Shown one piece after another: positions 11,659-57,760 of a stretch of 64,000 bases of DNA; the first letter of the stretch is position 1; each line of letters starts with the position of its first letter. The DNA lies in assembly GCA_964564435.1 (NCBI GenBank), contig CAZMAT010000003.1:96451-160450 (forward strand). The letters run 5' to 3'. The stretch is from an uncultured bacterium (GTDB lineage Bacteria > Fermentibacterota > Fermentibacteria > Fermentibacterales > Fermentibacteraceae). A program made the position numbers and the translations under genes. The notes beneath the pieces are model-generated. The model worked only from the letters and a program-made list of their open reading frames with translations, was not told where the DNA came from and searched no databases.

Positions 11659-11672
11659 AAAACTGTCGAGCG

Positions 11673-11710
11673 GGGAAGCTCCTCCGGTCCCGGGGGAGCT
11701 TCCCTTTTCT
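11673..11710 (+). terminator. Rho-independent terminator after the LysM gene
   Basis: gggaagctcc-tccggtcccgg-ggagcttccc is a perfect 10-bp GC-rich stem followed by ttttct. Confidence 0.6.
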
Positions 11711-11731
11711 CGGGAGACGGATCCATCCGGC

Positions 11732-12688
11732 ATGTTAGAAAGCGTCAGGGTCCAGAGGGAGCTTCCGCTCGAGCTCGCGGGCGAGGTCCTCGGACCCGGC
11801 GATTCCTTTCTGCGGCTGATATGCAGCAGGCTGGGAGTCACCGCGGTCTACAGGGACGGAGTCGTGGTGTTCACCGGGCCGGTGGAAGCCGCAGAGAAGG
11901 CCGGCAGCGTCCTCGACCGTCTCAGGGAGGACATCGGGACCACCGGGTCGGTCCGTGACATCTCGCTCTACACCGCACTGGACTTCCCATCCCCCGGCGA
12001 TCCCGGCCTGGATCTCCCCGTTCCCGGCAAGGCGGGGCGCGTCTCCCCCCGGACCCCCGGCCAGGAGGAGTACATCTCCGCCATGCGGGGCAGCGAGATC
12101 GTATTCAGCATCGGACCGGCAGGCACGGGCAAGACCTTCCTCGCAGTGGCCGCCGCGGTCGCCTCGCTCCGGGACGGCCTCGTAGAGAGGATCGTGATCA
12201 CCAGGCCTGCAGTCGAGGCAGGCGAGAATCTCGGCTTCCTGCCGGGCGACCTGCTGCAGAAGATCGACCCTTATCTCAGACCCATCTATGACGCGCTCAA
12301 CGACACGCTCTCGCCGGCGCGCCTCCGGCGAAGCATGGACAACGGCGTCATCGAGGTCGCCCCTCTCGCCTACATGCGCGGGAGGACGCTCAACAACGCC
12401 TTCGTGATCCTCGACGAAGCCCAGAACACCACCCTCACCCAGCTCAAGATGTTCCTCACCAGGCTCGGGTTCAGATCGAGGGCGGTCATCACGGGCGACA
12501 TCACGCAGATCGACCTCGAGCCCGCGTCGTCCTCCGGCCTGGTGCGCATCCGTCCGATCCTCGAAGGTGTCGAGGGGATCAGGTTCGTCCTGCTCGGCGA
12601 GAGGGACGTCGTGAGGCATCCCCTCGTGCAGAAGATCATCACCGCCTTCGCCCGGTACGAGCAGAGCCCGGGGGTGGAACAGAAATGA
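11732..12688 (+). CDS. phoH: PhoH-like ATPase
   Basis: 318 aa with Walker A GPAGTGKTFLAV and the PhoH C-terminal region. ATGA overlap with the next gene. Confidence 0.9.
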   Translation: MLESVRVQRELPLELAGEVLGPGDSFLRLICSRLGVTAVYRDGVVVFTGPVEAAEKAGSVLDRLREDIGTTGSVRDISLYTALDFPSPGDPGLDLPVPGKAGRVSPRTPGQEEYISAMRGSEIVFSIGPAGTGKTFLAVAAAVASLRDGLVERIVITRPAVEAGENLGFLPGDLLQKIDPYLRPIYDALNDTLSPARLRRSMDNGVIEVAPLAYMRGRTLNNAFVILDEAQNTTLTQLKMFLTRLGFRSRAVITGDITQIDLEPASSSGLVRIRPILEGVEGIRFVLLGERDVVRHPLVQKIITAFARYEQSPGVEQK

Positions 12689-18442: not shown

Positions 18443-20857
18443 ATGGAACTGTCCAAGCGCTACGTCGCGTCCGAGGCCGAGCCCCGCTGGCAGAGGCAGT
18501 GGCGCGAATCCGGCATCTACAGGTTCGATCCCGACTCGGGGAAGCCCCTGTTCACGATCGACACGCCGCCTCCGACGGTCTCGGGCATGATCCACATGGG
18601 GCACGTCTTCAGCTACGTGCAGGCCGAGGTCATAGCCAGGTACAGGAGGATGGCGGGGGACGGGGTCTTCTACCCGTTCTGCTTCGACGACAACGGGCTG
18701 CCCAGCGAGAGGTTCACCGAGAAGACGAAGAAGGTCCGCGCGCACGAGATGCCCAGGAGCGAGTTCGTGAAGCTGTGCCTCGAGGTGACGTCCGGCGCCG
18801 AGGATGGCTTCCGCGAGCTCTGGACGAGGCTCGGCTTCTCGTGCGACTGGGACGAGATGTACACCACCATCAGCCCCTGGGTCAGGGGCCTGAGCCAGAG
18901 GTCGTTCCTCGACCTGCACTCTAAGGGCAGGATCTACCGGAAGAGCATGCCGACGCTCTGGTGCCCCGAGTGCAGGACCGCCGTAGCCCAGGCCGAGACC
19001 GAGGACCGCGAGCTCGACTCCGTCTTCCACGACCTGGTGTTCGGGCTGGCCGGCGGGGGGACCATCCCCATAGCGACTACGAGACCCGAACTCCTGCCCG
19101 CCTGCTCTGCGGTGTTCCGCAACCCGGATGACGGGCGCTGGAGCCATCTTGAGGGCAGATCCGCCGTCGTCCCGCTGTACGGGCGCGAGGTCCCCGTCCT
19201 CGCGGACGGCAGGGTGTCCATCGAGAAGGGCAGCGGCCTCGTGATGTGCTGCACCTTCGGAGACACGACCGACATCGCCTGGTGGGAGGAATACGGGCTC
19301 GAGCTGCGCATCGCCCTCGAGCGGAACGGCCGTATGAACGAGCTCGCCGGGCCGTATCGGGGCCTGAGCGTGAAGGAGGCCCGCGCCAGGATCGTCGAGG
19401 ACCTCTCCGCGGGCGGGCTCCTGACCGGCTCGAAGCCCCTGGTCCACGCGGTCAACGTCCACGAGAGATGCGGCACCGCCCTGGAGTACCTCGTCACCCC
19501 GCAGTGGTTCATCCGCATCCTGGACATCAGGGACGAGCTGCTCGAGCGCGGCAGGCAGGTGAAGTGGCACCCGGAGATGTTCCGGGTCAGGTACGACCAC
19601 TGGGTCGAGAACCTCAGGTGGGACTGGTGCATAAGCCGCCAGCGCTACTACGGGGTCCCGTTCCCGCTCTGGTACTGCGGCTCCTGCGGGGAGCCGGTGT
19701 TCGCCCGGGCGGAGGACCTCCCGGTGGACCCGCTCGAGGATTCGCCCTCCGGCCCCTGCCCGCACTGCGGATCTGCGGAGTTCACCCCCGAGAACGACGT
19801 GATGGACACCTGGGCCACCAGCTCGCTCACGCCCCTCATCAATGCCAGGTGGGGGGAGCCCGGCGACAGGTCGGGCATGATACCGATGAGCCTGAGGCCC
19901 CAGGCGCACGACATCATAAGGACCTGGGCATTCTACTCGATCGTGAAGGCGCATCTCCACATGGACACGATCCCGTGGCGGCACGTGATGATCAGCGGCC
20001 ACGCCCTCAACCCGAACCGCGAGAAGATGTCCAAGAGCAAGGGCAACGTCGCGGGCGACCCTTTGGCCGCCCTCGAGAAGTACTCGGCCGACGAGCTGCG
20101 TTACTGGGCCTGCTCGAGCCGGCTGGGCACCGACGTGATGTTCAGCGAGGAGGTCCTCGGCCTGGGGCGGAAGCTCGTGACGAAGCTCTGGAACGCGGCC
20201 CGGTTCACCGCCGGGCATCTCGAGGGATTCGACCCCTCCACCCTCGTCGAGCTGCGCCCCTTCGACAGATGGATCCTCTCCCGCGCATCGAAGGCGGTCG
20301 CCGATGCCACCTCGGGCATGGAGGAGTTCGAATACTCTGTCTGCATGAGGGAGGCCGAGTCGTTCTTCTGGAACGCCTTCTGCGACAACTACCTCGAGAT
20401 AGTGAAGGGGCGCCTGTTCGGCTCCGATCCGCAAGCCGCCGGCGCCGCAAGGAAGGCGCTCTACGACTGCCTCTACACCGTCCTCCGCCTCTTCGCGCCC
20501 ATCCTGGTCCACATAACCGAGGAGCTCTACCAGGGGATCTTCAGGGAGCACGAGGGGCATGCCAGCATCCACACCGCCCCATGGCCCGTTGATGGGGAGA
20601 TCGACTCCGATGCCCTGCGGGCCGGCGACCTCTGCCTCGGGGTGATCGAGGCCGCCAGGAGGTACAAGAGCGAGAAGAACCTGAGCATGGCCGCCCCCCT
20701 GGGCAGGCTCTCGGTCACCTCCTCCGGGGAGGACATCGCGCTGATGCGGGGCTTCGGGGAGGATCTCGGGAACGTCACCAGGGCGTCGTCGATCGTCTGG
20801 GTCGAAGGCGTATCCGGCATCTCGGTGGACATCGAGGAAGCGGGGGAGGGTTCGTGA
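18443..20857 (+). CDS. valS: class-I aminoacyl-tRNA synthetase with editing domain, most likely valine--tRNA ligase
   Basis: 804 aa with TIDTPPPTVSGMIHMGHV (HIGH-type) and KMSKSKGNV motifs plus a CP1 editing insertion. The length fits ValRS better than IleRS or LeuRS. ATG 18443 has a GGAG RBS; the track ORF is over-extended from 17732. Confidence 0.7.
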   Translation: MELSKRYVASEAEPRWQRQWRESGIYRFDPDSGKPLFTIDTPPPTVSGMIHMGHVFSYVQAEVIARYRRMAGDGVFYPFCFDDNGLPSERFTEKTKKVRAHEMPRSEFVKLCLEVTSGAEDGFRELWTRLGFSCDWDEMYTTISPWVRGLSQRSFLDLHSKGRIYRKSMPTLWCPECRTAVAQAETEDRELDSVFHDLVFGLAGGGTIPIATTRPELLPACSAVFRNPDDGRWSHLEGRSAVVPLYGREVPVLADGRVSIEKGSGLVMCCTFGDTTDIAWWEEYGLELRIALERNGRMNELAGPYRGLSVKEARARIVEDLSAGGLLTGSKPLVHAVNVHERCGTALEYLVTPQWFIRILDIRDELLERGRQVKWHPEMFRVRYDHWVENLRWDWCISRQRYYGVPFPLWYCGSCGEPVFARAEDLPVDPLEDSPSGPCPHCGSAEFTPENDVMDTWATSSLTPLINARWGEPGDRSGMIPMSLRPQAHDIIRTWAFYSIVKAHLHMDTIPWRHVMISGHALNPNREKMSKSKGNVAGDPLAALEKYSADELRYWACSSRLGTDVMFSEEVLGLGRKLVTKLWNAARFTAGHLEGFDPSTLVELRPFDRWILSRASKAVADATSGMEEFEYSVCMREAESFFWNAFCDNYLEIVKGRLFGSDPQAAGAARKALYDCLYTVLRLFAPILVHITEELYQGIFREHEGHASIHTAPWPVDGEIDSDALRAGDLCLGVIEAARRYKSEKNLSMAAPLGRLSVTSSGEDIALMRGFGEDLGNVTRASSIVWVEGVSGISVDIEEAGEGS

Positions 20858-21375
20858 GGCCGTCCTGGGACGAGTATTTCCTCAAGCTCGCCATGCTCGC
20901 GTCCGAGAGGGCGACATGCCCGAGGATGCACTGCGGCTGCGTGCTCGTGAAGGACCGCTACGTCCTCTCGACGGGCTACAACGGCTCCCTGCCCGGCTCT
21001 CCCCACTGCGAGGACGAGGGCTGCCTGGTCGTGGACAATCACTGCGTCAGGACGAACCACGCCGAGATGAACGCCATCTGCCAGGCAGCGAGGCACGGAG
21101 TGTCGCTCGAAGGCGCCTCGGCCTACGTAACCAACATGCCCTGCACGACCTGCGCCAAGGCCCTGACAGCCGCGGGGATCCGCAGGGTCGTGGTCTTCTC
21201 GGGATTCCACGACACGCTGGCGGGGAAGTTCTTCGCCGAATCGGGCGTCGTCCTGGAGAAGCGCGCAATGCCCTGCCGGGAGATCATGTACGACCTGGAG
21301 TCGTATTCCTCGGCGAGGAGCCTCGATGCACAGGGCGGCTGCCCCGATGGAGACCACGGGACAGGCGGGAGCTAG
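20854..21375 (+). CDS. dCMP deaminase (ComEB-like)
   Basis: 173 aa with the CMP/dCMP deaminase zinc motif HAEMNAI...PCTTCAKAL. GTGA overlap with valS. Confidence 0.85.
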   Translation: MRPSWDEYFLKLAMLASERATCPRMHCGCVLVKDRYVLSTGYNGSLPGSPHCEDEGCLVVDNHCVRTNHAEMNAICQAARHGVSLEGASAYVTNMPCTTCAKALTAAGIRRVVVFSGFHDTLAGKFFAESGVVLEKRAMPCREIMYDLESYSSARSLDAQGGCPDGDHGTGGS

Positions 21376-22974: not shown

Positions 22975-23927
22975 AGGCCAGCGAGATCCGGCTCCTCGTC
23001 GAGGTAGCCGATCCTGAAAGCCGCTTCCGCGCTCTGGATGATGCATTCAGGGAGCGGATCCCAGGTCGGGGTCATCCTCGACCAGGCCATGGCGATGACT
23101 GAATCCGGAAGGGCCTTTCCGGTCATCCTGCCGATCTCCGAATTGACCAGGGCCATGGCCGAATCGGGATTCGCCAGCTCCCACTGCGTGATCTCGACGT
23201 GCGCCCTCAGCCACGCCCCGACCAGCTCCGGGTTCTCCTCGAGTATCCGGGTGGAGGCTATGACGCATGCCGTAGGGAACCTGCCCCCCTCCCAGAGATC
23301 CCTCTCGTCGACCAGGACGGTCCCGCCGCCCTCCACGACGAGCCTGCTGGCCCAGGGCTCGGGCACCCAGGCGCCGTCGATCTGTCCCTGGACGAAGAGG
23401 TCGAAGATGTCCGGGTTCTGCACCGCGACGACCTCCACGGTCCCACCCTGCTCCAGGGTCGAGAGGCCGTTGTCCATGAGCCAGCACCGCAGCGCCACGT
23501 CCTGGGTGTTCCCGAGCTGCGGCGATGCGAGCTTCCTGCCGTCGAGATCGGCCGGAGTCGATATCCCCGCATCGGAACGGACAACGAGGCAAGCTCCGGC
23601 GCTGGTGGCTCCCGCCACCACCCTCAGAGCGGCGCCATCGGAACGGATGTAGCCGTTCACCGCGGGATTGGGGCCTATGTAGGCCAGATCGATCTCGCCC
23701 GCGAAGAGGGCCTCTATCACGGAAGGTCCTGCGTTGAAGACGATGGGTTCGATCACGATCCCGGGGCCCGTCTCCCGTGCGAAGTCGCCTCTCGCCAGGC
23801 CTATGATGGCCTGGGAGTGCGTGATGTTGGGGAAGTAGCCGACCCTGAGAGTGCCCTCGGGCCGCTCCCTGCCGCATCCGGCGCAGAGCGCCGCGAGCGC
23901 GAGGGTGATCATCCTGCGGTTCGTCAT
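22929..23927 (-). CDS. ABC transporter substrate-binding lipoprotein (SsuA/TauA/NrtA-like)
   Basis: MTNRRMITLALAALCAGCG lipoprotein signal, then an NMT1/SsuA-like fold (LRVGYFPNITHSQAII...). Start re-picked at ATG 23927. Confidence 0.8.
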   Translation of the reverse strand: MTNRRMITLALAALCAGCGRERPEGTLRVGYFPNITHSQAIIGLARGDFARETGPGIVIEPIVFNAGPSVIEALFAGEIDLAYIGPNPAVNGYIRSDGAALRVVAGATSAGACLVVRSDAGISTPADLDGRKLASPQLGNTQDVALRCWLMDNGLSTLEQGGTVEVVAVQNPDIFDLFVQGQIDGAWVPEPWASRLVVEGGGTVLVDERDLWEGGRFPTACVIASTRILEENPELVGAWLRAHVEITQWELANPDSAMALVNSEIGRMTGKALPDSVIAMAWSRMTPTWDPLPECIIQSAEAAFRIGYLDEEPDLAGLCDLTILGGITEAGR

Positions 23928-24124
23928 CAGTGCCTTTCTTCGGGACGCCTGACCTTCGTCACCAGCACGGTCCCGTCCGTCAGCAGAACCCATCTCAGCC
24001 TGTCCTCGGGCGTCAGGCCCAGCCTGTCGACTATCTCCTTCGGGACCGTGGTCCTTCGCCTGCTCTCGCGGATCGTGAGCGCAGTCTCGGTCACGAAGTC
24101 CACCTGTTCGAGGTCTACATGCAT
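23927..24124 (-). CDS. AbrB/MazE/SpoVT-family DNA-binding protein
   Basis: MHVDLEQVDFVTETALTIRESRRRTTVPKEIVDRLGLTPEDRLRWVLLTDGTVLVTKV has the swapped-hairpin AbrB fold signature. GGAGGT RBS sits 5 nt upstream of ATG 24124; the track ORF is over-extended. Confidence 0.6.
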   Translation of the reverse strand: MHVDLEQVDFVTETALTIRESRRRTTVPKEIVDRLGLTPEDRLRWVLLTDGTVLVTKVRRPEERH

Positions 24125-24242: not shown

Positions 24243-25712
24243 CTAGCGGATCGAGGCCTGGAACTGGATGGTGGCGTCGAGCCGGGAAGACCCTTCGGTT
24301 TCTTCCGAGCCTTCCCCGATCGATTCCACGGAGTCCTTCCGAAGGTACGACAACCTGCCGGCTATTTCGGAGCCTTCGGAGAGAGGCAGCCCGAGCGCGG
24401 CCTGGAGCAGGAATCCCCTGCCGTGCTGCTGGATGGACGCGAAGTCTCCCGGCAGGGAGAGCTCGCCGAAGTAGACCCTGGAATCGTAGTCGTCGGTGGA
24501 GAAGCCCGCGGCGGCGAGCCTGAGGATCGCGTCGCCGAGCGAGAGCTTCAGCCTCGTCTCGGCACCGGTTCCGCCTGGGGAGCCGTCGGGGCCGTCGTGA
24601 CCGGTGCGCTGGACGGCGGCGGAGAGGATCGTGCCTCCCGCAGGCCTCCAGGAGGAGGATGCGACGATGCGGTACGACCCGGCGCCCTCTTCGGAGGAGC
24701 CCCTCGCACGCAGGCCAAGGTCGAAGTCGGGGGTCATCCTCCGCGAGATCTCCAGATCGGCTCTAGAGCCTGAGTCGTCCCCCTCCAGGAGGCACATCGC
24801 CGTGAGGCGGGCCGACCATCCGTCCCCTGGCCGGAGCCCGGCTGAGGCGCCGGCCCCTATGTCGCAGGCCCCTCCCAGGGGCATGGAGGATCTGTCCCCG
24901 GGGAAGTCGCCCGGGCAGCGGAAGACACCGGCGTTGAACCGCAGGGCGGATGTCTCCTCGTGGATGCAGGCCCAGAAGGCTTCTGACGCCCTGTCGCCCG
25001 AGAGCCCGGCCGCAGCCTCGCAGGTTATCCCGACGGCCCCTGCCGATCCGTCGAAATCCATCCCGGCACGCCCGTAGAGGCCGTCACCCCGGTCACCGAG
25101 GACCGCTCCGAACCCGAACGGGCCGCGGGCGATCCTTGCAGCAGCGAGATCCTCCCGGACCGAACTCTCGGCTGCGAGCTCCGACGCAGTCCGGTGGAGG
25201 CCCTCTCCGGAAGGGTCGATGCGGGATGAGGCACCGAGGAGCGTGCACGACACCCCGCCTAGGGAGAATCCGCCGCCTGCTCCCAGCAGTGGCTCGGCGT
25301 CCGAGCATCCCGGGCTGGCCGCGGGTTCGAGCCTCGTTTCGAGGGAAGGCGGCTTCTCCTCGATGCCGGCGCCGCTCGACCAGCCTCCGGGATGAGACAG
25401 GACGAGCCCCGACCCCAGACCGGCCCTCAGCCAGCCCCCGACCGCGCTGAAGGCCGAACCGGGATCCCGGTACGAAGCCCCCGCCGTGACCAGATCGCAC
25501 CAGTCCTCCCCGGGGTCCTTCTCCGCCACTGCGGTCAGGGCGAACCCGCCGCGCGAGAGGCGCACCCTGTGGAGGAACGAGTACGGGTCACCCGCCCATG
25601 TGCCGTCGACGGAACCGCTGGCGTCGGGGAACAGCCTTCCCAGCCTGAAGAGGACGTCGCCTCCACCGGGAGATGTCACCAGCGCAAGGGAGAGGATGAT
25701 CCCGGGGATCAC
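24243..25712 (-). CDS. secreted Gly/Ser/Ala-rich protein, possible outer-membrane beta-barrel
   Basis: Starts at a GTG overlapping the TGA of the ComEA-like gene (GTGA). MIPGIILSLALVTSPGGG signal-like N-terminus and alternating amphipathic segments. The track ORF 24243..26723 is over-extended through the upstream gene in another frame. Confidence 0.45.
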   Translation of the reverse strand: MIPGIILSLALVTSPGGGDVLFRLGRLFPDASGSVDGTWAGDPYSFLHRVRLSRGGFALTAVAEKDPGEDWCDLVTAGASYRDPGSAFSAVGGWLRAGLGSGLVLSHPGGWSSGAGIEEKPPSLETRLEPAASPGCSDAEPLLGAGGGFSLGGVSCTLLGASSRIDPSGEGLHRTASELAAESSVREDLAAARIARGPFGFGAVLGDRGDGLYGRAGMDFDGSAGAVGITCEAAAGLSGDRASEAFWACIHEETSALRFNAGVFRCPGDFPGDRSSMPLGGACDIGAGASAGLRPGDGWSARLTAMCLLEGDDSGSRADLEISRRMTPDFDLGLRARGSSEEGAGSYRIVASSSWRPAGGTILSAAVQRTGHDGPDGSPGGTGAETRLKLSLGDAILRLAAAGFSTDDYDSRVYFGELSLPGDFASIQQHGRGFLLQAALGLPLSEGSEIAGRLSYLRKDSVESIGEGSEETEGSSRLDATIQFQASIR

Positions 25713-26779
25713 TCCACTGCCAGCCTGGATCTCATCCCCTCGAACAGCGACTGACCTATCCCCGGGACGTCCATGATCTGTTCGACCGAAGTGAAGGGGC
25801 CGTGCTCGAGCCGGTACGCCACTATGGCCTCGGCCCTGGCGGGCCCTATGCCCGGGAGCGAGCAGAGATCGTCGACCCCGGCGGTGTTGATGTCTATCAC
25901 ACGGTCGGCCGCCTGTGCGGGAGGCGGGGCGGGGATTTCGCGCACGAGGGGGACTGGGACGTGAGCCGCCCGGCCGAGAGCCACCCCGGCGGAATGGGTC
26001 TCGCCGAGGTCGGGGTGGAACCCGAGGCCGTAGAGGAACTCGACGGGGCCGGCGCCGAACGTGAGGGAGAGTGCGAACCTCGACGGATCCGAGGACAGGC
26101 CGAGCCGGATGACCAGAGATCCGGTCGGGGAGTATCCCGCCGTGAACGAAGGCTCCGGATCGAGCCCCTCTGTGAATGTCAGACCCGCCGACAGGCCCAG
26201 CCGTTCGACCGGGGCGACCCCTGCAGAGAACGACGCGCTCCTGGGGACCGCGGGGTCGCCCGAATCGCCCAGGCGGCTCCTCGCGAGGCCCCTCACCGCG
26301 AGCGCCGTCAGCACGCCGTCCATCGGGCGGGCGACGAGGCCTGCGTCGGAGGAGAATGCGGTGCAGGAGCCGTATCCCGAGATGGAGAGCCTGTGAGCCG
26401 ACACCGAAACCCCGCAGGCGAGGCCCGTTATGATCCTCCTGGAGGCGCCCGCGGTGAATGTGAGTTCGGAATAGCCCTCGTCGCCCGAGGCGAGTGCTCC
26501 GGCCGAGAAGCATGTCGCGCCCGAGGGCAGCGAGCCGGCCACGGAGGCCCTGTCGAGCCTCCGCAGGCCGAACGGCCTCGAAGCCGACGCGGATACGGAC
26601 CATCCCTCGAGGAGGGCGGTTCCGGCGGGGTTCTCGAACATGACGGCGGCGCACTGGGGGAAGAGGGCCGATGAAGAACCGGCTGCAATCCACGGAGCCT
26701 GCTGGACCGGTTCGAATGCGCACTCCGCGGCACCCGGCGACAGAACGGCGATCACTACGGCTGTTCGATGCCAGTTCAC
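25709..26779 (-). CDS. ComEA-like helix-hairpin-helix DNA-binding protein with beta-rich N-terminal domain
   Basis: C-terminal DINTAGVDDLCSLPGIGPARAEAIVAYRLEHGPFTSVEQIMDVPGIGQSLFEGM matches the ComEA HhH tandem. N-terminal ~280 aa are signal-peptide-led and Gly/Ser-rich with beta-strand periodicity. Confidence 0.6.
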   Translation of the reverse strand: MNWHRTAVVIAVLSPGAAECAFEPVQQAPWIAAGSSSALFPQCAAVMFENPAGTALLEGWSVSASASRPFGLRRLDRASVAGSLPSGATCFSAGALASGDEGYSELTFTAGASRRIITGLACGVSVSAHRLSISGYGSCTAFSSDAGLVARPMDGVLTALAVRGLARSRLGDSGDPAVPRSASFSAGVAPVERLGLSAGLTFTEGLDPEPSFTAGYSPTGSLVIRLGLSSDPSRFALSLTFGAGPVEFLYGLGFHPDLGETHSAGVALGRAAHVPVPLVREIPAPPPAQAADRVIDINTAGVDDLCSLPGIGPARAEAIVAYRLEHGPFTSVEQIMDVPGIGQSLFEGMRSRLAVE

Positions 26780-26875
26780 GTTTCCAGTCTACTCCATGAC
26801 GGGTTCCGCTGCAAGTGGTGTTGACATTGCCTCCCCGGCAGACAAAACTCTGTCCATGAAGCGGAGGAGGGGCGT

Positions 26876-28366
26876 TTGGGTGTCTGTCGCATCGAAAGCG
26901 GCGGACGGGGACAGGGAGGGGAGGGGGCGGCGCTAGACGGGCTCCTGACGGACACGGCTCTAGAGGTGCTCAGGAAGCGCTTCCCGAACTCACCGGACCC
27001 CGCAGCCGAATGGAAACCCGGCAGACCGGCCTGGCGGTCGCTGCTGCCGGAGCTCGAGGTTCTCGACGAGGAACTGGCGTCGCTGCGCAGGCGCGGCGGC
27101 AAGGTCGTGCTATACGGGCACGACGACGCAGACGGCATCACCGGCATCTATGCCGGCAGGGTCATGCTCGCCCGGCTGGGTTTCAGGGTGGTGCCGATCA
27201 TCCCGGACAGGGCTTCAGAGGACTACGGCCTGCTGCCGTCGCGGATGGACGGCCTTCTCGAGGCCGGCGACCTCCTGCTCACGGTGGACTCGGGCTGCTC
27301 GGCAGTCGAGGGGGTCGAGTGGGCCCTCGCGAGAGGGGCAAGGGTCGTCATCACCGACCACCATACCCTGAACCCTCCCCTGCCCCGGGCGCACGGCCTC
27401 ATAGACCCCCAGGCCATCGGCTTCCCCGGCACCGTCCTCGCGGGATGCGGAGTCCTGTATGCCGCTCTCGCCGAGCTCTTCCCCTCCATTGCAGACTGCC
27501 CACGGCTCTACACGGCGGTCGCCCTCGGCACCGTGTCGGACAGGGTCCCTCTGCTGGCAGCGAACAGATACCTCCTCGAGCGCTTCCGGAACGTCGAGAC
27601 CGGCGATCTCCCCGCGGGGATGCGGGTCATCGTCGACGCCTGGCCCAACAGGAAGGGCGCCTGGTGTGCCTGCAACGTGAGGCAGCAGATCACGTCGGTC
27701 ATCGGAAAGGGCCTGAACTCCGGCATCGGGCGGCTGCTCGAGATGCTCGAGAGCGACGACGCGGCATGGTGCGCCTCGGCCTGGCGGGAGATGGTCGCCG
27801 CCAGCGATTCGAGGTCCCAGCAGATGTCCGACATGCTTTCCCGCGCCATGAACGAGAAGGATCCCGAGGCCGATGCCTTCGGGATGGTCATCGTGCACCT
27901 GCCCGGCATACCGCCCGGGATGGGCGGCACCCTGGCCAGCAAGCTGTCGCGCATCTTCAGGCGGGGGACCATCGTCGTCACGACCCGCGGCAACGGTTCG
28001 ATCGTCGGGGAGGCCAGGTCCCTCGGCGACTGGGACATGGCATCGTTCCTCACCGGCATGAAGAACGTGTTCAGCAGCGCCGGAGGCCACTCCAGGGCGG
28101 CCGGTTTCAACACCGACAGGATGGGCTGGCCCGAACTCCGCAGGAACCTCATCTCCAGGCTCTCCACGGTACGTTCGAAGCCGGTGCCCGAACCGCACGT
28201 CGATCTCGAGCCCGCCTCCCTGCCGCAGGCGCAGGAGCTCTCCTGCCTCGCCCCGTTCGGCCCCGACTTCCCTCCTCCCGCCGTGAAGGTGGGAGGGATG
28301 CGCTACCTGATGCAGCTCGGTCCGAACGGGCCGTGCTGGTGCATCACGGAGGACAGCGGGGAGTAG
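26876..28366 (+). CDS. DHH/DHHA1 phosphoesterase (RecJ-like/NrnA-like)
   Basis: VVLYGHDDADGITG, VVITDHH and the GGHSRAAGF DHHA1 motif. Start uncertain. Confidence 0.7.
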   Translation: MGVCRIESGGRGQGGEGAALDGLLTDTALEVLRKRFPNSPDPAAEWKPGRPAWRSLLPELEVLDEELASLRRRGGKVVLYGHDDADGITGIYAGRVMLARLGFRVVPIIPDRASEDYGLLPSRMDGLLEAGDLLLTVDSGCSAVEGVEWALARGARVVITDHHTLNPPLPRAHGLIDPQAIGFPGTVLAGCGVLYAALAELFPSIADCPRLYTAVALGTVSDRVPLLAANRYLLERFRNVETGDLPAGMRVIVDAWPNRKGAWCACNVRQQITSVIGKGLNSGIGRLLEMLESDDAAWCASAWREMVAASDSRSQQMSDMLSRAMNEKDPEADAFGMVIVHLPGIPPGMGGTLASKLSRIFRRGTIVVTTRGNGSIVGEARSLGDWDMASFLTGMKNVFSSAGGHSRAAGFNTDRMGWPELRRNLISRLSTVRSKPVPEPHVDLEPASLPQAQELSCLAPFGPDFPPPAVKVGGMRYLMQLGPNGPCWCITEDSGE

Positions 28367-28490
28367 GCGCCGTGGAAGCGCCCCGAACGCGGCGCACACT
28401 CTCCCGAAATGGAAACCCGGCGCATCCCTCCTTGGAGGGACACGCCGGGAAACCGGACGCAGCCGGGCGGCCTACCGCCCCTGAGCCGCC

Positions 28491-30110
28491 CTAGATGTCG
28501 AAGTCCGCATCGTCCCGCGGCTCCACCTTGAAGTCCTCGAAGGAGAACCAGCACACCCCGACGATGCTCTGGATCGCTCCTCCCACTGTCGGTTCGTAGG
28601 TGTAGTCGCCCATGTCGTCCATCATGCAGGCACCCGACCCGTCGGTGACGGACCACTGGCCGTAACCGAGGCTGTCGCTCACCACCGTGAGATTCTGGAT
28701 CCTGACGAGAACGCTCTCCCACTCCTCGGGCGCGGAGGAAGTCATCATCTCGCCCGTGGTGGCATCGTGGGGGGCGGGCAGCGGGTGTCCGGAGGAGACG
28801 ATCTCGGCGTCGGTGATGTATGACAGTTCGGTGAAACCGTAGTATTCCTGGACGGTCCCGGTCACCACGACGCTGTCCCCCCGGGCGAAGCCCGCGATGT
28901 CGTTGTCGTAGAGGGCGAGCCCGCTCCATTCGCCGCCGCCCTCGTCCTGGATGACCGCATAGTCCTGGGACGAGGAGTAGAACTCGTCACCTCCCACGGT
29001 GACTATTCCAGTGACGCTCACTATCTGTCCGAGATACGGCGACTCGGCCGCCTGCCCCTGCACCTCGTAGCAGGAGAGCACCTCGCCGGGGCCCGTTCCG
29101 CCACCGACGTCGAGGTCGCCGTCGTCCCTGGGTTCGAGCTTCCATTCGCTGTAGCTGTACCAGAGCACGCCGGCCGCGCTGAAGAGCGTGTCTCCCACGG
29201 AAGGAACGTAGGAGTAGTCGCCCATGTCGTCTACGATGCACTCGCCGGACCCGTCATCCACATCGAACTGGCCGTAGGAGCCCACCGAGATCACTACCGC
29301 GTCGGAGATCTCTACGAGGACGGCCTCCCATTCCTCGGCTCCGCCGGCCTCGGTCAGATCGTCGGTGGCGACGGCGGACGGCGCGGGGAGATCGGCATCC
29401 GAGCCGAGGATCTCGATGGATGAAGGGAAGCTCAGCTCTGTCGTCCCGTAGTACTCCTGCACGGTTCCCGTGATCGCGATGCTGTCGCCCCTGACCAGGC
29501 TCTCCACGCTGTCGCCGTAGAGGACAAGGCCGCTCCACGGTCCGCCGGCCGGATCGGAAAGGACGGCGTATATCCCGTCAGAGGAGTAGAGCTCGGTGCC
29601 CCCGGCGGTCACGACGCCCATGACCGTGACGACCTGGCCCTCGTAGGGGGACGAGGTGGCCATGCCCTGAACCTCGGCGCAGGTCAGCCAGTCGCCGGCG
29701 GCTCCGGAGTCGGGCGTGACGGCCGTGACCTCGTTGCTCCAGCTCTCGAGGCCCTCCGTGTCACGGGTTACGAGGGCGTAGTAGTAGGTGTGGCTCCACT
29801 CGAGCCCCGTGTCGGTGAACACAGTGTCGGAGGCCGTGGTGCGGGTGGCCGCTATCACGGCGCCGGTCTGATCCTCCTCGATGCCGGGCTCCTCCGACCT
29901 GTAGAGGCGGTACTCCTCGAAATCCTCGTCGGGGCACATGGTCCAGCTCGCCAGTACCGAGTTCGTGGAACCCGAGGCGTCGGCGTCGAGCACCGAGGCC
30001 TGGGGCTCCTCGCCTGTGCCGGCGGGGCCCTGTTCGTCGTCGCCGCAGGAGGCCGCCAGGGTGACGGCCGCTGCCAGGATGAGCATCCTAGTCCTCGCAG
30101 AAGAAGGCAT
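28491..30110 (-). CDS. lipoprotein with Fn3-like domain and two tandem ~185-aa OB-like repeats
   Basis: MLILAAAVTLAASCG lipobox. Two repeats (CAEVQGMATSSPYEGQVVTVMGVVTAGG...EWKLEPRDDGDLDV and CYEVQGQAAESPYLGQIVSVTGIVTVGG...DFKVEPRDDADFDI), also visible as a ~540-bp DNA duplication. GGAGGT RBS 5 nt before ATG 30110. Confidence 0.55.
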   Translation of the reverse strand: MPSSARTRMLILAAAVTLAASCGDDEQGPAGTGEEPQASVLDADASGSTNSVLASWTMCPDEDFEEYRLYRSEEPGIEEDQTGAVIAATRTTASDTVFTDTGLEWSHTYYYALVTRDTEGLESWSNEVTAVTPDSGAAGDWLTCAEVQGMATSSPYEGQVVTVMGVVTAGGTELYSSDGIYAVLSDPAGGPWSGLVLYGDSVESLVRGDSIAITGTVQEYYGTTELSFPSSIEILGSDADLPAPSAVATDDLTEAGGAEEWEAVLVEISDAVVISVGSYGQFDVDDGSGECIVDDMGDYSYVPSVGDTLFSAAGVLWYSYSEWKLEPRDDGDLDVGGGTGPGEVLSCYEVQGQAAESPYLGQIVSVTGIVTVGGDEFYSSSQDYAVIQDEGGGEWSGLALYDNDIAGFARGDSVVVTGTVQEYYGFTELSYITDAEIVSSGHPLPAPHDATTGEMMTSSAPEEWESVLVRIQNLTVVSDSLGYGQWSVTDGSGACMMDDMGDYTYEPTVGGAIQSIVGVCWFSFEDFKVEPRDDADFDI

Positions 30111-30182
30111 CTCCGACCTCCGGTTGAGTGAATCCCTCGTCGTGCTTTCCTGACCGAATATCGCCCGGCGGGGTGTCGGCGG

Positions 30183-31067
30183 CTAGAAGGAGGCGGAGAG
30201 CCCGGCCAGCACGGGCCAGCCGAACTCGTCGCGGGATAACGAGATATCCAGCCGGTAGGAACCGGAGGATTCGTAGGCGTAGCCCGCCCCGAAGAAGGGG
30301 CCGGAAGCTTCGGATTCGCCGGGGACCAGCTCCCAGCCTCCGGATACGGCTACCGGGCCGGCGGGGATCTCGGCGGCTGCCGAGAGCCTCGAGGCGGTGA
30401 AGAACCCGAGGGACCCCCCGCCCACCAGTCGGAGGATGGCCGCTGGCCTCCACGAAGCTCCGAGCGTGAGCACGGTGGGCATGTTCTTCCTTACGCCGTT
30501 CCACTCTGGCGCGCTGCCCAGGTTGTCGACGGAAAGACCAAGTTCCAGGCCGGGGAGAGCGTCGCTGTAGAGGCCGATTGTTGACGTGAGGCCCGTCGCC
30601 CCTTCTGCGTCGGCGCTCTCCCATACCGGGCCGAGCGAGGCTCCGGCCCTGAGCCCGGGCAGGATGGCGGTGGAGAAGGAAGCCGACAGGCAACCCGTCG
30701 ACCAGGAATACTCTCCCGTAGGCATCCCCGCCTCGTCCCTGCCCTGGATGCCTCCGTGGCCGAGCCACTGGATCGCCAGGCCGGCAGTGGAGCCTCCCCC
30801 GGCGGAGAAGGCTGCCGCTGCGCCGGCGGTGGATGACTCGAGCCGGGCGGTCCCGCCGGATGCGGTTATCCCGGGGATGAGGGCAGCGGGATTCGTCGTC
30901 CCTGCAGAAGCCCCGGCCGTGACGGCGCCCGCCGCGATGCCGAGCCTCGCGGTGGCGGCGAAGGGATCGGCGCAGAGCACCAGGGCGTCGGCTGTGCCCG
31001 TCGAGGCGGAGGAGACGCCCGATGCGAGCAGGGCGGTCAGCGCACTATTGAGAAGTACTCTACCCAT
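30183..31067 (-). CDS. outer-membrane beta-barrel protein (PorV/PorQ-like), C-terminal Phe
   Basis: MGRVLLNSALTALLASGVSSAST signal, Gly/Ala/Ser-rich alternating strands, ends ...LAGLSASF. Start re-picked at ATG 31067 with a GGAGG RBS. Confidence 0.5.
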   Translation of the reverse strand: MGRVLLNSALTALLASGVSSASTGTADALVLCADPFAATARLGIAAGAVTAGASAGTTNPAALIPGITASGGTARLESSTAGAAAAFSAGGGSTAGLAIQWLGHGGIQGRDEAGMPTGEYSWSTGCLSASFSTAILPGLRAGASLGPVWESADAEGATGLTSTIGLYSDALPGLELGLSVDNLGSAPEWNGVRKNMPTVLTLGASWRPAAILRLVGGGSLGFFTASRLSAAAEIPAGPVAVSGGWELVPGESEASGPFFGAGYAYESSGSYRLDISLSRDEFGWPVLAGLSASF

Positions 31068-32188
31068 CTCCCACCGCCTCCGTCCTCGAGGACGGCTGCA
31101 TAGAGCCCGGGAGAGGCGAGGGAGCCTCCGTCCAGAGAGAGGTCCCACTCGACCGAAAGGGTTCCGGTCTCACGGTTCATCACGGTTTCCCCCGACAGGT
31201 TCACGACTCTGAGGGTGTATGCCTGAGAGCCTCCGGACTCGGGCCATCGGAACGTGACATGGTCGGAGCATGGGCTGGGATAGGCGACGAAGCCGGAAGG
31301 ATCCCCGGGGGCCCCGCCTCCGGGCAGGGACTGGAAGTAGAGGCTGTCGCCGTCGGTCGAGATGAAGAACGTGCCCAGCAGGTCGGTCCTGAAGATGTCG
31401 ATGTCGCGCCCCAGCAGCCTGGCGATAACCTCGCCGTGGGGATGCCCGAAGGGATTGCCTGCGCCCACTTCGATCGCAGCCCAGTCGGGTGAGACCGCCG
31501 CGAGCCACTGCGTCGAGGTGGACGTGTAGGAGCCGTGGTGGCCCACCTTCAGGACGTCCGAGGCGATGCTGTCGATCAGGCCGAGAGCCAGCGCATCGAG
31601 TACGACCTCCTCGCCGCCCTCCGTCTCGAGGTCGCCTGTGAAGAGGAAGCTCACATCCAGGTACGAAAGCCTGAGCACGATGCTTGCGTTGTTGATGTTG
31701 CCGGGGTCGAGCGGATCCACCGGGTGCAGCACCTGCACCGAGAGATCCGGACCCCAGTCGAGGGAATCGCCCCTCCGGAGGATGCGGAGGCCCGACCCGC
31801 AGGCCTCGACGGCGTCCATGAACTCGCCGTATACGAACGAGCCGGAGTCGAAGCCGCTGTCCCAGACGGAGTCGACCGTGACGGTCTCGAGGACGGAGAT
31901 CAGCCCTCCGATGTGATCCGAATGCGGGTGGGTCGCGACGATGCCGTCGAGATGCGTGATGCCCAGGCTGTCGAGGAGCGGGAGGACCCTGGATTCCCCG
32001 CAGTCCCAGAACGGGTCGGACCCGTGGTCACCCCCGTCGATGAGATAGCTCCCGCCAGACGGGGTCCTCACGAGCATCGCATCACCGGAGTAATCGGAGT
32101 AGCCGGGATCGATGAAGAATACCGTCAGCGGATCGGATGCAGCCGCCGCCGCCAGGGCCAGCGCCAGGAGCAGGGATCTACTGGACAA
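31037..32188 (-). CDS. secreted MBL-fold hydrolase (ComEC/Rec2 C-terminal-like nuclease domain) with C-terminal Ig/T9SS-like domain
   Basis: Signal peptide, then HPHSDHIGG metallo-beta-lactamase motif and a later HHGS motif. C-terminal ~90 aa are beta-rich (YTLRVVNLSGETV...GLYAAVLEDGGG). Confidence 0.7.
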   Translation of the reverse strand: MSSRSLLLALALAAAAASDPLTVFFIDPGYSDYSGDAMLVRTPSGGSYLIDGGDHGSDPFWDCGESRVLPLLDSLGITHLDGIVATHPHSDHIGGLISVLETVTVDSVWDSGFDSGSFVYGEFMDAVEACGSGLRILRRGDSLDWGPDLSVQVLHPVDPLDPGNINNASIVLRLSYLDVSFLFTGDLETEGGEEVVLDALALGLIDSIASDVLKVGHHGSYTSTSTQWLAAVSPDWAAIEVGAGNPFGHPHGEVIARLLGRDIDIFRTDLLGTFFISTDGDSLYFQSLPGGGAPGDPSGFVAYPSPCSDHVTFRWPESGGSQAYTLRVVNLSGETVMNRETGTLSVEWDLSLDGGSLASPGLYAAVLEDGGGGRWVEYFSIVR

Positions 32189-32771
32189 ATGCCTTGATGA
32201 ATGCCCAGGTATTGGACGCGAAGGAATTCTCGTAGACGCTGTTCTTTTCTCCAGGCGAGCCCTTGTCGCCGTCGCCGAACGAGAACAGGGCCGCCGCCCA
32301 GCTGGATGAGAGCCCGATGGTCCAGTTAGGGTTGATCCTCTCGCAGGAGCATCCCGGCTCGACAGGCCAGGACGCGTCGTAGGCCAGTGTCTCGACGGTC
32401 TGCCCTCCGGGCTCGATCAGCATGAGCGAGCCGGCGGCCGATATGCTGAAGCCCGAGTAGACCTGGTCGGGAGAGTAGCCGCCGTTGCGCCCGGGGTCAC
32501 CCGAGGAGCCGAGGACGACATATCCGTCGGGGGGCACGAGATAGGTGCCGCAGATGATCTGGATGCCGCTCTGGTTGCGGATCCGCCACCCCGAGAGGTT
32601 CACGTAGTCGTCGGATCTGTTGTAGATCTCTATCCACTCCCCCTCAGCCTCAGTTGCGGAAGAGAGCGGGGCCGCCATGAACTCGTTGAAAACCAGAGCC
32701 GACGAGGACAGGTCCTCGGGCAGGCACGGCTGATTGCCGGCAATGATCGACGCAACCATCAGCACAGTCAT
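32178..32771 (-). CDS. lamin-tail-domain (LTD) secreted protein
   Basis: LVFNEFMAAP...EWIEIYNRSDDYVNLSGWRIRNQSG matches the LTD signature. Overlaps the MBL gene by 11 nt. Confidence 0.7.
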   Translation of the reverse strand: MTVLMVASIIAGNQPCLPEDLSSSALVFNEFMAAPLSSATEAEGEWIEIYNRSDDYVNLSGWRIRNQSGIQIICGTYLVPPDGYVVLGSSGDPGRNGGYSPDQVYSGFSISAAGSLMLIEPGGQTVETLAYDASWPVEPGCSCERINPNWTIGLSSSWAAALFSFGDGDKGSPGEKNSVYENSFASNTWAFIKAFVQ

Positions 32772-32825
32772 CTCATTCCCTCTGTCCCCGGGGCCGGCGG
32801 CAGCAGCGATACGGGCATCCGCCCG

Positions 32826-33749
32826 TCATTCCGCGTCTCCGGACCCGCCCTCCATAGCCCTGAGCAGCTCCTCTATCTCCTGGAGGGCCTGTCGCCTCTC
32901 CTCCTCGAGCTGCCTCAGAGCCTCCTCGTCCTGTGTCCTGCGCAGGCGCTCCGTGGGCTCGAGCGTCGTCCTGTTGAAGAACGGCCCGAGCTCGAACTCG
33001 GCGGCGAGCGTGAACTTGGAGTTCTGCATCACGTCGGTCTGATCCCTGTCGTCGCCCCTGAGCGACTGCTCGAACTCGGACAGGCAGGCCGCTACGGACA
33101 CCTTCCTGTTGATGGCGTAGCGGGCGCCGAAGTTGGCATCCCGGCCGTCCCATTCCACCGCGAGCGAGAAGACGTTCGAGGGATGGACCTCCACGGCCAT
33201 GAAGAGGCCGGGTAAGGGATTGGCGAAACCGTCGGAGTCCTCTTCCTGGATGAAACGCCCGGAGCCCCATCCGAGGTTCAGGCAGACCGGAACATGGGCG
33301 AGGTAGTCCAGGCTCTTGGTGACCACGATGTATGCGGAGAGGTTCTGGCTCTGCGGGTACTCGTACAGCGCAGAGTCGTCCTCGAAGAACTCGTAGTTCT
33401 TCTCGCCTATCAGGTTCTCGACTCCGACCGCGATGCCGGGCCGGGTGATGGACTCCCGGAGGGCCAGGACCCTGGCCTGCCCCGAGAAGCCGCCTGCGCC
33501 CAGATACGTTGCGCCGAGCTGGATCCGGTCGATCAGGCCCACCTCTACATAGCCGCCCAGGGCGAAGTCCGATTCGTTCGAGCCGTTGGGGTTCTCGAAG
33601 CCGTAGGCGGTGAATCCGAGCCCCACGGCCACCTGGGTATGCTCGAGGACGCCGGCCACGGGGGCGTCGAGCATACCGTACCTGGCGAAGGGCAGCGAAC
33701 CCGCCAGCACGCTCGAAGCGGCGCACGCCAGAACTGCGAAGTATCTCAT
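32826..33749 (-). CDS. hypothetical secreted beta-rich protein with C-terminal coiled coil
   Basis: Signal peptide MRYFAVLACAASSVLAGS, beta-strand periodicity, C-terminal EALRQLEEERRQALQEIEELLRAMEG. Confidence 0.45.
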   Translation of the reverse strand: MRYFAVLACAASSVLAGSLPFARYGMLDAPVAGVLEHTQVAVGLGFTAYGFENPNGSNESDFALGGYVEVGLIDRIQLGATYLGAGGFSGQARVLALRESITRPGIAVGVENLIGEKNYEFFEDDSALYEYPQSQNLSAYIVVTKSLDYLAHVPVCLNLGWGSGRFIQEEDSDGFANPLPGLFMAVEVHPSNVFSLAVEWDGRDANFGARYAINRKVSVAACLSEFEQSLRGDDRDQTDVMQNSKFTLAAEFELGPFFNRTTLEPTERLRRTQDEEALRQLEEERRQALQEIEELLRAMEGGSGDAE

Positions 33750-53767: not shown

Positions 53768-53845
53768 GGTCCGGTAGTTCAATTTGGTTAGAGCACCGCC
53801 CTGTCACGGCGGAAGTTGCGGGTTCGAGTCCCGTCCGGACCGCCA
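53768..53845 (+). tRNA. tRNA-Asp (anticodon GTC)
   Basis: 78 nt: acceptor GGTCCGG/CCGGACC, anticodon stem CCGCC/GGCGG with loop CTGTCAC, T-arm GCGGG-TTCGAGT-CCCGT, discriminator G, encoded CCA. Confidence 0.9.
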
Positions 53846-54420: not shown

Positions 54421-54429
54421 TCACCGTTA

Positions 54430-57120: not shown

Positions 57121-57124
57121 AAGT

Positions 57125-57370
57125 GTGATCCTTGCATCAACGACCCTTCACTCACGCATACGTGGATTGATGATGTGGCCTGCACGGTTCTCACGCGGAG
57201 AACGTGCGAAAGCGAACAGGTTGCCCAGATACTCAAGCCGGAATACCCGTGCACTCGTGCCTGACGGAAACCTTGATCCGCCCGAGGTGGATCAAGGCAC
57301 GCCCTGTCGCGGTTTCCCTTCGGGAAACCACTGTCGGGCTACCCATCGATTCCGCTTCGCGAAATCGATG
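57125..57370. repeat. right-border copy of the hairpin-repeat family
   Basis: cgcggtttccc-ttcg-ggaaaccac tgtcgggctacccatcgattccgcttcgcgaaatcgatg parallels the 139-bp unit (gcagttttctgcgaaaactgctgttacgctacctatcgattccgccctgcgaaatcgatg). The upstream part has gcacggttc...gcgaaagcgaac similarity. Confidence 0.55.
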
Positions 57371-57381
57371 TGACGATCCGG

Positions 57382-57648: not shown

Positions 57649-57760
57649 CCAATATCCAACCGCCGTACGCCCCGGTCAATCGCATGAGGCCTGCACGGCC
57701 TGGATACTCTTCCGGAGGCTTTGGAACGTCGTATCTTCGGTGATCCGGAGGAGGTCGGCC

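Follow-up and report, generated by a model that had tools for sequence, protein, structure and literature searches.

A 64-kb window of DNA from an uncultured member of the Fermentibacterota (contig CAZMAT010000003.1, positions 96,451 to 160,450; all coordinates without a contig label are positions in this window) carries a cluster of genes for envelope proteins with nucleic-acid-handling domains, among them a free-standing ComEC-type nuclease domain and a ComEA protein fused to an outer-membrane (OM) beta-barrel. The base composition of the window is about 66% G+C. Its proteins are 95-100% identical to proteins of metagenome-assembled genomes that bear the names Candidatus Fermentibacter or Fermentibacteria (phylum Fermentibacterota, previously called Hyd24-12), and the surroundings of the cluster are those of an ordinary chromosome, with glnA, ispG, prfA, rho, two aminoacyl-tRNA synthetase genes, phoH, and genes for GAPDH, a phosphoenolpyruvate-utilising enzyme and an NMT1-type ABC transporter. 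An initial annotation had described the cluster as one extracellular DNA capture and degradation module. All the elements that it listed were found in place by family scans, open reading frames (ORFs) and structure modelling. The region, however, is two modules and not one, A (28491-32771, minus strand) and B (24243-26779, minus strand), with the following genes:

32178..32771, minus strand: module A gene 1, a lamin-tail-domain (LTD) protein of 197 amino acids (aa) (PF00932, E=2.1e-13, 51 bits; cutoff 34)
31037..32188, minus strand: module A gene 2, a 383-aa protein with a ComEC-type metallo-beta-lactamase-fold (MBL) domain at residues ~20-295 and a probable C-terminal type IX secretion system (T9SS) sorting domain at ~303-383
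30183..31067, minus strand: module A gene 3, a 294-aa OM beta-barrel, probably of the PorV/PorQ family, that has a signal peptide and ends in Phe
28491..30110, minus strand: module A gene 4, a 539-aa lipoprotein with a lipobox (LAAS-C, then GDDE), an fn3 domain at residues 41-131 and repeats at 140-336 and 343-539
25709..26779, minus strand: module B gene 1, a 356-aa PorV-ComEA fusion with a signal peptide, a predicted PorV/PorQ barrel at residues ~20-285 and a ComEA helix-hairpin-helix (HhH) domain at 294-354
24243..25712, minus strand: module B gene 2, a 489-aa large-barrel protein with a signal peptide and a predicted OM barrel of ~24-25 strands, of no named family

The MBL protein of module A had been described as secreted, with an HPHSDHIGG motif and a C-terminal sorting-like domain. 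We found the motif, a Sec signal peptide and the C-terminal domain, and the MBL domain grouped with ComEC nuclease domains, not with beta-lactamases. It aligned to positions 450-661 of the 663 in the ComEC_Rec2 model TIGR00361 (E=7e-33, 113.6 bits against a cutoff of 190), and its closest solved structures were the ComEC C-terminal domain (CTD) in PDB 9ic4_A (E=1e-40) and residues 527-800 of the full-length ComEC in 30bt_A (E=1.5e-38). The next non-ComEC match in the PDB was CbpE, at E=1e-4. Across 64 orthologues, D36, H87, D91, H92, D186, H217, H218 and H249 do not vary, and position 89 is occupied by H or D, as in ComEC (that of Moorella has D). The motifs GD, HPHSDH, HHGS and FGHP align with those of the ComEC CTD in the PDB. 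In ComEC, this domain is a Mn2+-dependent nuclease needed for efficient transformation (PMC8579336). As the protein is Sec-secreted and devoid of a membrane domain, it is not a ComEC; beyond the signal peptide it consists of the MBL and C-terminal sorting regions only. The Por_Secre_tail model PF18962 was matched by 44 of the 64 orthologues (best E 1e-9), which, together with the presence of two PorV-family barrels in the cluster, supports the earlier suggestion of export by the T9SS. The family scan returned no match to the EEP domain in any cluster protein.

A second clade of secreted ComEC-type MBL proteins occurs in the phylum. These proteins of ~530 aa are ~60% identical in the catalytic domain, and some carry fn3 or Ig domains. 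One example of 527 aa (contig L008, 10001-11584) has no LTD, PorV-like or OB (oligonucleotide/oligosaccharide-binding) neighbours. We ruled out these paralogues as part of such a cluster, since they are encoded elsewhere.

The barrel gene follows the MBL gene directly in all eight Fermentibacterota contigs compared (see below). The ORF read from the sequence spans 30183-31148 (minus strand) and, as had been reported, encodes an OM barrel ending in Phe; gene callers start it at 31067, and from that start it overlaps the MBL gene by 31 nucleotides (nt). The 294-aa protein matched NF033709 (PorV_fam) and NF033711 (PorQ), each at E=4e-9 and below the curated cutoffs, and a deep alignment of the PorV family with an hhalign probability of 96.6% (E=6e-10). 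On the other side of the MBL gene, the LTD gene was confirmed at 32178-32771 (minus strand; E=2e-13). The last 11 nt of this gene, as read from the sequence, are shared with the MBL gene, which starts with TTG, and the N-terminus of the LTD protein is short, hydrophobic and uncharged. Its C-terminal tail, N(S/T)WAFIKAFVQ (window 32178-32230), is invariant in five orthologues, the remainder of the protein being just 50-66% identical. The region encoding this tail overlaps with the start of the MBL gene, and the tail may be a docking or anchoring motif.

The fourth gene of module A encodes the lipoprotein, for which gene callers choose a start 8 codons downstream of that of the 539-aa ORF. Its two repeats, described initially as OB-like, are 52% identical over 195 aa (E=8e-72). 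The AlphaFold model was confident (mean pLDDT 89) and contained a lipidated N-terminus, an fn3 domain and the two repeats, each with two beta-barrel subdomains. In the model, each repeat consists of two OB folds in tandem, a pair similar to the HIN domains of p204 and p202, which bind double-stranded DNA (dsDNA). The best solved match found by Foldseek was the p204 HINab-dsDNA complex (E=7e-11), and the next matches outside fn3 were the HIN domains of MNDA, IFI16 and p202, each HIN being a tandem OB pair that binds dsDNA. No ComEC chain was among the top structural matches. Sequence scans gave a concordant picture: 79 of 81 homologues matched tRNA_anti-like and 75 matched tRNA_anti-codon, and the lipoprotein matched the YhcR-like N-terminal OB region of the ExeM/NucH model NF033681 (68.9 bits against a cutoff of 300). 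The OB-like fold of the repeats was thereby upheld. A split ComEC OB domain (DUF4131) was rejected as the identity of these repeats, as a HIN-like tandem OB of the ExeM/YhcR type fits instead. Membership of DUF5689 was rejected at the sequence level, PF18942 being matched by one of the 81 homologues at E=0.02. The mature lipoprotein begins with CGDDE, which is conserved and agrees with C(x)(D/E)(D/E), the signal for surface export in Bacteroidota employed in PMC12478041.

Four homologues of the lipoprotein in Fermentibacterota (P0214, P0220, P0222 and P0230) are ~790 aa long and contain CarboxypepD_reg and FlgD_ig domains, with a Por_Secre_tail in two of them, P0222 and P0230. Other homologues have ~333 aa and one OB-pair repeat. 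The occurrence of both long multidomain and single-repeat forms indicates that the OB-pair module is reused in several surface architectures.

Forty-two nt past the stop codon of the lipoprotein gene lies one further feature of module A:

28416..28449, minus strand: an intrinsic-terminator-like hairpin with a 15-bp stem (11 GC pairs) and a T-rich tail

This hairpin likely marks the end of the minus-strand transcription unit, which is convergent with the DHH gene described below. Terminator-like sites were no commoner in the region than in shuffled sequence, and the promoter and terminator scan as a whole was at chance level, so that the case for the hairpin rests on the strength of its stem and its position.

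Module B starts with the secreted ComEA-type protein, whose beta-rich N-terminus of ~280 aa had been pointed out. Our analyses retrieved its signal peptide, a beta-rich N-terminal part of ~285 aa and the HhH domain (HHH_3, E=3.5e-20). The domain scored 68.2 bits with TIGR00426, above the cutoff of 53.1. With TIGR01259, which describes full-length ComEA, the score was 62 bits for a cutoff of 152, and just positions 56-120 were matched. In direct scans of five orthologues each, neither the ComEA N-terminus nor the 489-aa protein had a family match at E<=1. An exhaustive phmmer search with the 285-aa N-terminus returned 1026 representative proteins, mostly free-standing and 260-290 aa in length. 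NF033709 (PorV_fam) was matched by 44 of 57 aligned homologues of this N-terminus (best E 9e-19), and 24 of the 57 have a ComEA HhH domain. Among the top 150 representatives, 24 are fused to HhH, some of them with two HhH domains. One PorV-HhH fusion is annotated from a Bacteroidota bacterium. The alignment of this N-terminal family is the deep one to which the 294-aa barrel of module A aligned with an hhalign probability of 96.6%; with 5-sequence profiles the probability was 50%. Because homologues of the N-terminus match the PorV/PorQ model and carry HhH domains, we conclude that the protein is a PorV-family OM barrel joined to ComEA.

The fusion gene is coupled to the next gene, as had been noted: its TGA stop and the GTG start of the 489-aa ORF are merged in the sequence GTGA. 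That ORF, 24243-25712 (minus strand), lies just outside the left border of the region as first drawn, at 25709. The model of the 489-aa protein, built from 10 sequences, was of moderate quality (pLDDT 66, pTM 0.61) and showed ~25 long strands. We then compared four distant loci with a PorV-HhH fusion. In three of the four, the fusion gene is followed immediately by a gene for a protein of 624-661 aa homologous to the 489-aa family (37-71 bits; hhalign probability of 98.5% over 400 columns). The comparison with the partner in contig L014 gave 26% with 5-sequence profiles and 98.5% with larger ones. The partners in L014 (by NCBIfam and Pfam) and L015 (by Pfam) have an additional N-terminal HhH, and no HhH match was recorded in the 624-aa partner in L016. 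Module B is thus an independent two-gene unit, widely distributed in genomes that are probably of the Fibrobacterota-Chlorobiota-Bacteroidota (FCB) type, although the taxonomy of the distant loci rests on sparse source names. Two points here go beyond the initial annotation, namely that the N-terminus of the ComEA protein is a PorV-family barrel, and that ComEA and the following ORF form a separate module kept far outside the phylum.

In L014 and L015, the PorV-HhH pair is flanked by genes for the T9SS protein PorD (DUF4835) and a DUF6913 protein (L014, 9068-9943 on the minus strand and 13293-13754 on the plus strand; L015, 7004-7918 on the minus strand and 11271-11822 on the plus strand). The PorD gene is divergently adjacent to the pair in both contigs, and the flanks suggest a conserved four-gene neighbourhood there. 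In the window, a gene for a 65-aa AbrB/MazE/PrlF-like protein (~23927-24124, minus strand), also conserved among relatives, sits between the 489-aa gene and the NMT1-type ABC transporter operon. Just upstream of it is the region's best match to a sigma-70-like promoter (24171-24144, 11 of 12 positions).

Conservation was assessed in eight distinct Fermentibacterota contigs, including one of Ca. Fermentibacter daniensis, in which MBL identity ranges from 95% down to 50%. A scan of genome contigs with a single protein as query yielded, apart from close relatives, one unrelated MBL from Oscillospiraceae. The gene adjacency proposed initially was conserved in these relatives. The LTD, MBL and barrel genes are contiguous and co-oriented in all eight. 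The lipoprotein gene comes directly after this triad in five contigs and is 6-7 kb off in another two; the 21 kb available of the last contig do not contain it. The ComEA and 489-aa genes are always adjacent, and despite inversions they lie at most 7 kb from the MBL gene in seven of the eight contigs; the eighth, L009, stops short of the region of the ComEA pair and the DHH gene. The DHH gene adjoins the pair in every contig that reaches that far. With the triad intact in all contigs and the ComEA pair and DHH gene within 7 kb of it in seven, the clustering of these genes is beyond chance. The evidence for co-function within each module, from overlapping start and stop codons and reading frames, is stronger than that from the proximity of one module to the other.

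Other genes of the region are associated with the modules to various degrees:

26876..28366, plus strand: a predicted RecJ-core DHH/DHHA1 exonuclease of 496 aa, with DHH and DHHA1 matches, divergent from the ComEA fusion gene
20854..21375, plus strand: a ComEB-like dCMP deaminase (dCMP_cyt_deam_1), possibly associated, whose orthologues are 75-78% identical
L005, 12036-12533; L006, 12025-12528; L007, 11953-12477: orthologues of the dCMP deaminase gene
32826..33749, minus strand: a peripheral 307-aa protein with a signal peptide, beta-rich, with a charged C-terminal helix
33768..35039, minus strand: a peripheral group-1 glycosyltransferase (PF13692, E=5e-13; TIGR03087, E=6e-19), at the head of the same-strand run

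The DHH protein had been counted among the secreted proteins. The DHH and DHHA1 domains are present, but no signal peptide was detected in the protein or its four orthologues. It scored 178.8 bits with the recJ model TIGR00644 (cutoff 396.9; model positions 48-471 of 546) and aligned to the RecJ core (1ir6_A, E=2.7e-33; 2zxo_A, residues 66-464 of 666), ending before the OB domain. By homology, it is a cytoplasmic RecJ-core enzyme without the C-terminal OB domain of RecJ. A gene for an NAD-dependent epimerase stands beside the DHH gene in three genomes (L003, L006 and L007), and a DUF5343 gene accompanies the cluster in four (L003, 18798-19520; L005, 16942-17541; L006, 19541-20221; L007, 19349-20068).

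In the window, the dCMP deaminase gene follows a class-I tRNA synthetase gene and overlaps its end. In L005, L006 and L007 it comes third, directly downstream of the genes of the ComEA fusion and the big barrel and in the same orientation, a placement that recalls comEA-comEB-comEC of Bacillus.

The minus-strand run had been presented as five genes starting with the 307-aa protein. The genes are there in that order, but the first of them is peripheral. Only the closer relatives (the window, L003/L011, L009, L010 and L012) have it upstream of the LTD gene; in L005-L007 unrelated genes take its place, and its product has faint matches only, to YjbH (exopolysaccharide) and OMP_b-brl. It is probably cotranscribed with module A, yet it is no conserved member. 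We rejected it as a core member on the grounds of its absence from L005-L007, the 267-aa protein in its place in L005 being unrelated. A promoter-like site (35116-35088) precedes the glycosyltransferase gene, whose adjacency is not kept in L005-L007.

Elsewhere in the window, G+C dips to 0.52-0.56 at 54000-58000, compared with 0.65-0.69 in the rest, straight after a tRNA gene (53768-53842, plus strand). This stretch is probably a horizontally acquired island. It contains a 460-aa ORF (55378-56760) without a Pfam match. An Rfam scan of the window identified two tRNAs and nothing else.

Taken together, the locus looks like a pilus-independent means to capture and cut environmental DNA and, probably, to import it. 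We propose that two OM-associated DNA-handling modules, side by side in Fermentibacterota, act in series, and we give this reading a probability of roughly 0.5. For its parts, it is probable that module A is a surface DNA-binding and nuclease assembly, and coupling between modules A and B is a more tentative proposition. The lipoprotein would be flipped to the cell surface, as fits its C-G-D-D-E start, a Bacteroidota-type lipoprotein export signal (LES), and would bind dsDNA through its four OB folds, arranged as two HIN-like pairs. The ComEC-type MBL nuclease, exported by the T9SS by means of its C-terminal sorting domain, would cut or resect the DNA while being kept at the OM by the PorV-family barrel encoded immediately after it. 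The LTD protein may assist by making the engagement of DNA more effective, like the LTD of ExeM, an enzyme whose activity depends on its two-OB region and is enhanced by the LTD (PMC6085458). The ~24-strand barrel of module B might then provide a route for DNA or its fragments across the OM, and the ComEA HhH, tethered at the periplasmic end of its PorV-family barrel, would bind the incoming DNA and prevent it from sliding back. Once in the periplasm, the DNA could be passed to ComEC and used in transformation, or be degraded further and salvaged; both fates would be compatible with the RecJ-core exonuclease and the dCMP deaminase.

A number of observations weigh against this proposal. Within the 64-kb window, we saw no comEC, dprA, pilus or type IV pilus genes and no core T9SS genes, and a literature search on the T9SS in Fermentibacterota found nothing. 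The cluster encodes no nucleoside or nucleotide transporter or phosphatase. The window's own MBL protein scores 19.2 bits with Por_Secre_tail over its last ~80 residues, below the curated cutoff of 27, and the 294-aa barrel reaches 36.5 bits with NF033709, for a cutoff of 90. The strand number and pore size of the 489-aa barrel, as modelled, are uncertain. The adjacency of the modules in Fermentibacterota sits inside a generally conserved synteny that includes housekeeping neighbours (tRNA synthetase, dCMP deaminase), and because these genes are syntenic too, the proximity of the two modules is suggestive only. Finally, no MBL, LTD or OB genes were seen near the distant PorV-HhH loci, so that modules A and B are separable.

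The locus might instead serve nutrient scavenging or turnover of extracellular DNA (eDNA) only. Module A would then be an ExeM/Xds-like surface DNase digesting environmental or biofilm DNA for phosphate and nucleotides, and the ComEA-barrel pair and the RecJ-like gene would be syntenic neighbours with a separate role. The combination of LTD and tandem OB is the signature of ExeM/NucH extracellular nucleases, and the ddb locus of Bacteroides pairs HIN-like lipoproteins with secreted nucleases for DNA catabolism without transformation; the distant PorV-HhH modules without nuclease genes and the general synteny, housekeeping genes included, agree with this as well. However, the catalytic domain is specifically of the ComEC type, not EEP, NucA or EndA, the modules remain at most 7 kb apart across contigs with 50-95% MBL identity despite several local rearrangements, and there is no local transporter or nucleotidase for the products. 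We consider this explanation somewhat unlikely.

The ComEC-like nature of the catalytic domain also allows a role in trans. The host ComEC might have no MBL domain, as in Bacteroidetes, where it is of the DUF4131+Competence type without Lactamase_B (PMC6299819), and the free MBL protein would degrade the non-transforming strand in the periplasm, next to ComEA. How that strand is degraded when ComEC lacks its CTD is an acknowledged open question (PMC8579336), and the MBL gene adjoins the ComEA gene and is near that of the ComEB-like deaminase in three genomes, in a manner reminiscent of comEA-comEB-comEC. Nevertheless, the T9SS sorting domain and the PorV-like barrel with its coupled gene suggest a place at the cell surface and not in the periplasm, and an LTD protein and an LES-bearing lipoprotein, as encoded in the same operon, are features typical of extracellular nucleases. 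We consider a periplasmic nuclease quite improbable.

Alternatively, module B might be a T9SS or surface accessory that anchors eDNA, for instance for attachment to the biofilm matrix, with its HhH facing outward and no part in import. The T9SS-associated PorV/PorQ family includes both barrels of the fusion family, and PorD is the divergent neighbour of the module in L014 and L015. Against an outward orientation, the C-termini of OM barrels are normally periplasmic. Moreover, ComEA HhH domains are uptake receptors that are periplasmic or membrane-tethered, as outlined in PMC3879209 for the ComEA of Vibrio cholerae, an HhH receptor for DNA, and transformation of Riemerella requires an HhH protein. 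We regard anchoring by module B as very improbable. Least likely is a system unrelated to DNA, in which the MBL protein would be a phosphodiesterase with a surface glycopolymer or lipid head group as its substrate and the OB, LTD and fn3 domains would bind carbohydrate. The weak PDB match to the teichoic-acid phosphorylcholine esterase CbpE (E=1e-4), the glycosyltransferase and faintly YjbH-like protein encoded upstream on the same strand and the general phosphodiesterase activity that the ComEC CTD also has (PMC8579336) would accord with it. However, the ComEC matches are ~35 orders of magnitude stronger than that to CbpE, the matches of the OB region are to a model of a nuclease family and to HIN structures that bind dsDNA, conservation of the core does not extend to the glycosyltransferase and the 307-aa protein next to it, and a ComEA DNA-binding domain is adjacent.

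Two modules acting in series remain our preferred reading, and it can be extended to a broader one. The PorV-ComEA fusion and its ~24-strand partner might be a pilus-independent OM DNA-uptake device common to Fermentibacterota, Bacteroidota and FCB relatives. The device may equal the Riemerella anatipestifer HhH protein RA0C_RS02645, which has its HhH at residues 236-301 and is essential for transformation (PMC8459023); by analogy, the layout of RA0C_RS02645 looks the same as that expected of a PorV-HhH fusion. In Fermentibacterota, this device would be fed by the free-standing ComEC-type nuclease at the surface, strand degradation having moved there from ComEC at the inner membrane. We view this generalization as unlikely, though it would address two open questions. 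One is how DNA crosses the OM in Bacteroidota and relatives without a type IV pilus and secretin, for which the OM-tethered ComEA with its conserved large-barrel partner, found well beyond this phylum, is a candidate. The other is how the non-transforming strand is removed when ComEC has no nuclease domain, as in about half of ComEC proteins (PMC8579336), and here the candidate is the free-standing ComEC-type nuclease domain with its surface-export signals. The locus would also extend the idea of DNA-utilisation loci (PMC12478041) to another phylum and to another transporter and nuclease chemistry, and it bears on the turnover of eDNA in anaerobic digesters and in sediments, habitats rich in Fermentibacterota.

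The known systems closest to module A are the extracellular nucleases ExeM, Xds and NucH of Shewanella, Vibrio and Aeromonas (NF033681), which are likewise secreted and envelope-associated and combine an LTD, a YhcR-like OB pair and a catalytic phosphoesterase. In those proteins the parts are fused, whereas here they are on separate polypeptides, the LTD being on its own co-operonic 197-aa protein. The catalytic domain is EEP there and a ComEC-type MBL here, the OB pair is here duplicated and lipid-anchored, and GlyGly-CTERM and rhombosortase are replaced by a T9SS CTD and a PorV-like barrel. Relative to ComEC/Rec2 (TIGR00361; PDB 9ic4, 30bt and 9vc6), the likeness extends throughout the MBL domain, with the motifs GD, HxH/DxDH, H, D, HHGS and GHPH, but here the domain is free-standing, Sec-secreted and equipped with a T9SS sorting domain, without the DUF4131 OB and the polytopic 'Competence' channel. 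The notion of a disaggregated ComEC, which was implicit in the initial annotation, thus holds for the MBL domain and fails for the rest, as there is no channel domain and the OB repeats resemble those of ExeM/NucH and not those of ComEC. The system is better described as an ExeM-type surface nuclease that is disaggregated and has a catalytic domain of the ComEC type.

The second parallel is with ddbABCDEF of Bacteroides thetaiotaomicron and RA0C_RS04915/RA0C_RS04920 of Riemerella. These loci also belong to FCB-group organisms and also encode a surface lipoprotein that starts with an LES and resembles p202 HIN, DdbD being modelled as a p202 HIN-like lipoprotein (PMC12478041). The lipoprotein is co-encoded with secreted nucleases and OM barrels, and the ambiguity between catabolism and transformation is the same. 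The differences are that the TonB-dependent transporter (SusC-like, with CarboxypepD_reg) DdbC/RA0C_RS04915 has no counterpart here, as no cluster gene matched TonB_dep_Rec, Plug or CarboxypepD_reg and the 489-aa barrel has generic barrel similarity only; that the lipoprotein DdbD/RA0C_RS04920 is a DUF5689 protein, while ours has a HIN-like fold and CGDDE without DUF5689 sequence; and that the nuclease belongs to another family, with PorV-family barrels and a T9SS signal being used here.

For module B, the similarity to ComEA (TIGR00426/TIGR01259) lies in the C-terminal HhH, which scores above the domain cutoff, and in an envelope location behind a signal peptide. ComEA is usually soluble or anchored by an inner-membrane helix, whereas here it is fused to a PorV/PorQ barrel, and the fusion is paired with a large barrel always within Fermentibacterota and in three of four distant loci. 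Our literature search found no co-mention of PorV with ComEA or HhH. The T9SS shuttle and anchor barrels PorV and PorQ (NF033709, NF033711) are of the same family as the barrels described here, one of which is encoded beside a predicted CTD-bearing cargo. What sets the present locus apart from them is that two dedicated paralogues, both scoring below the cutoffs, are tied to DNA-handling partners, and that a DNA-binding domain is joined to one of the two.

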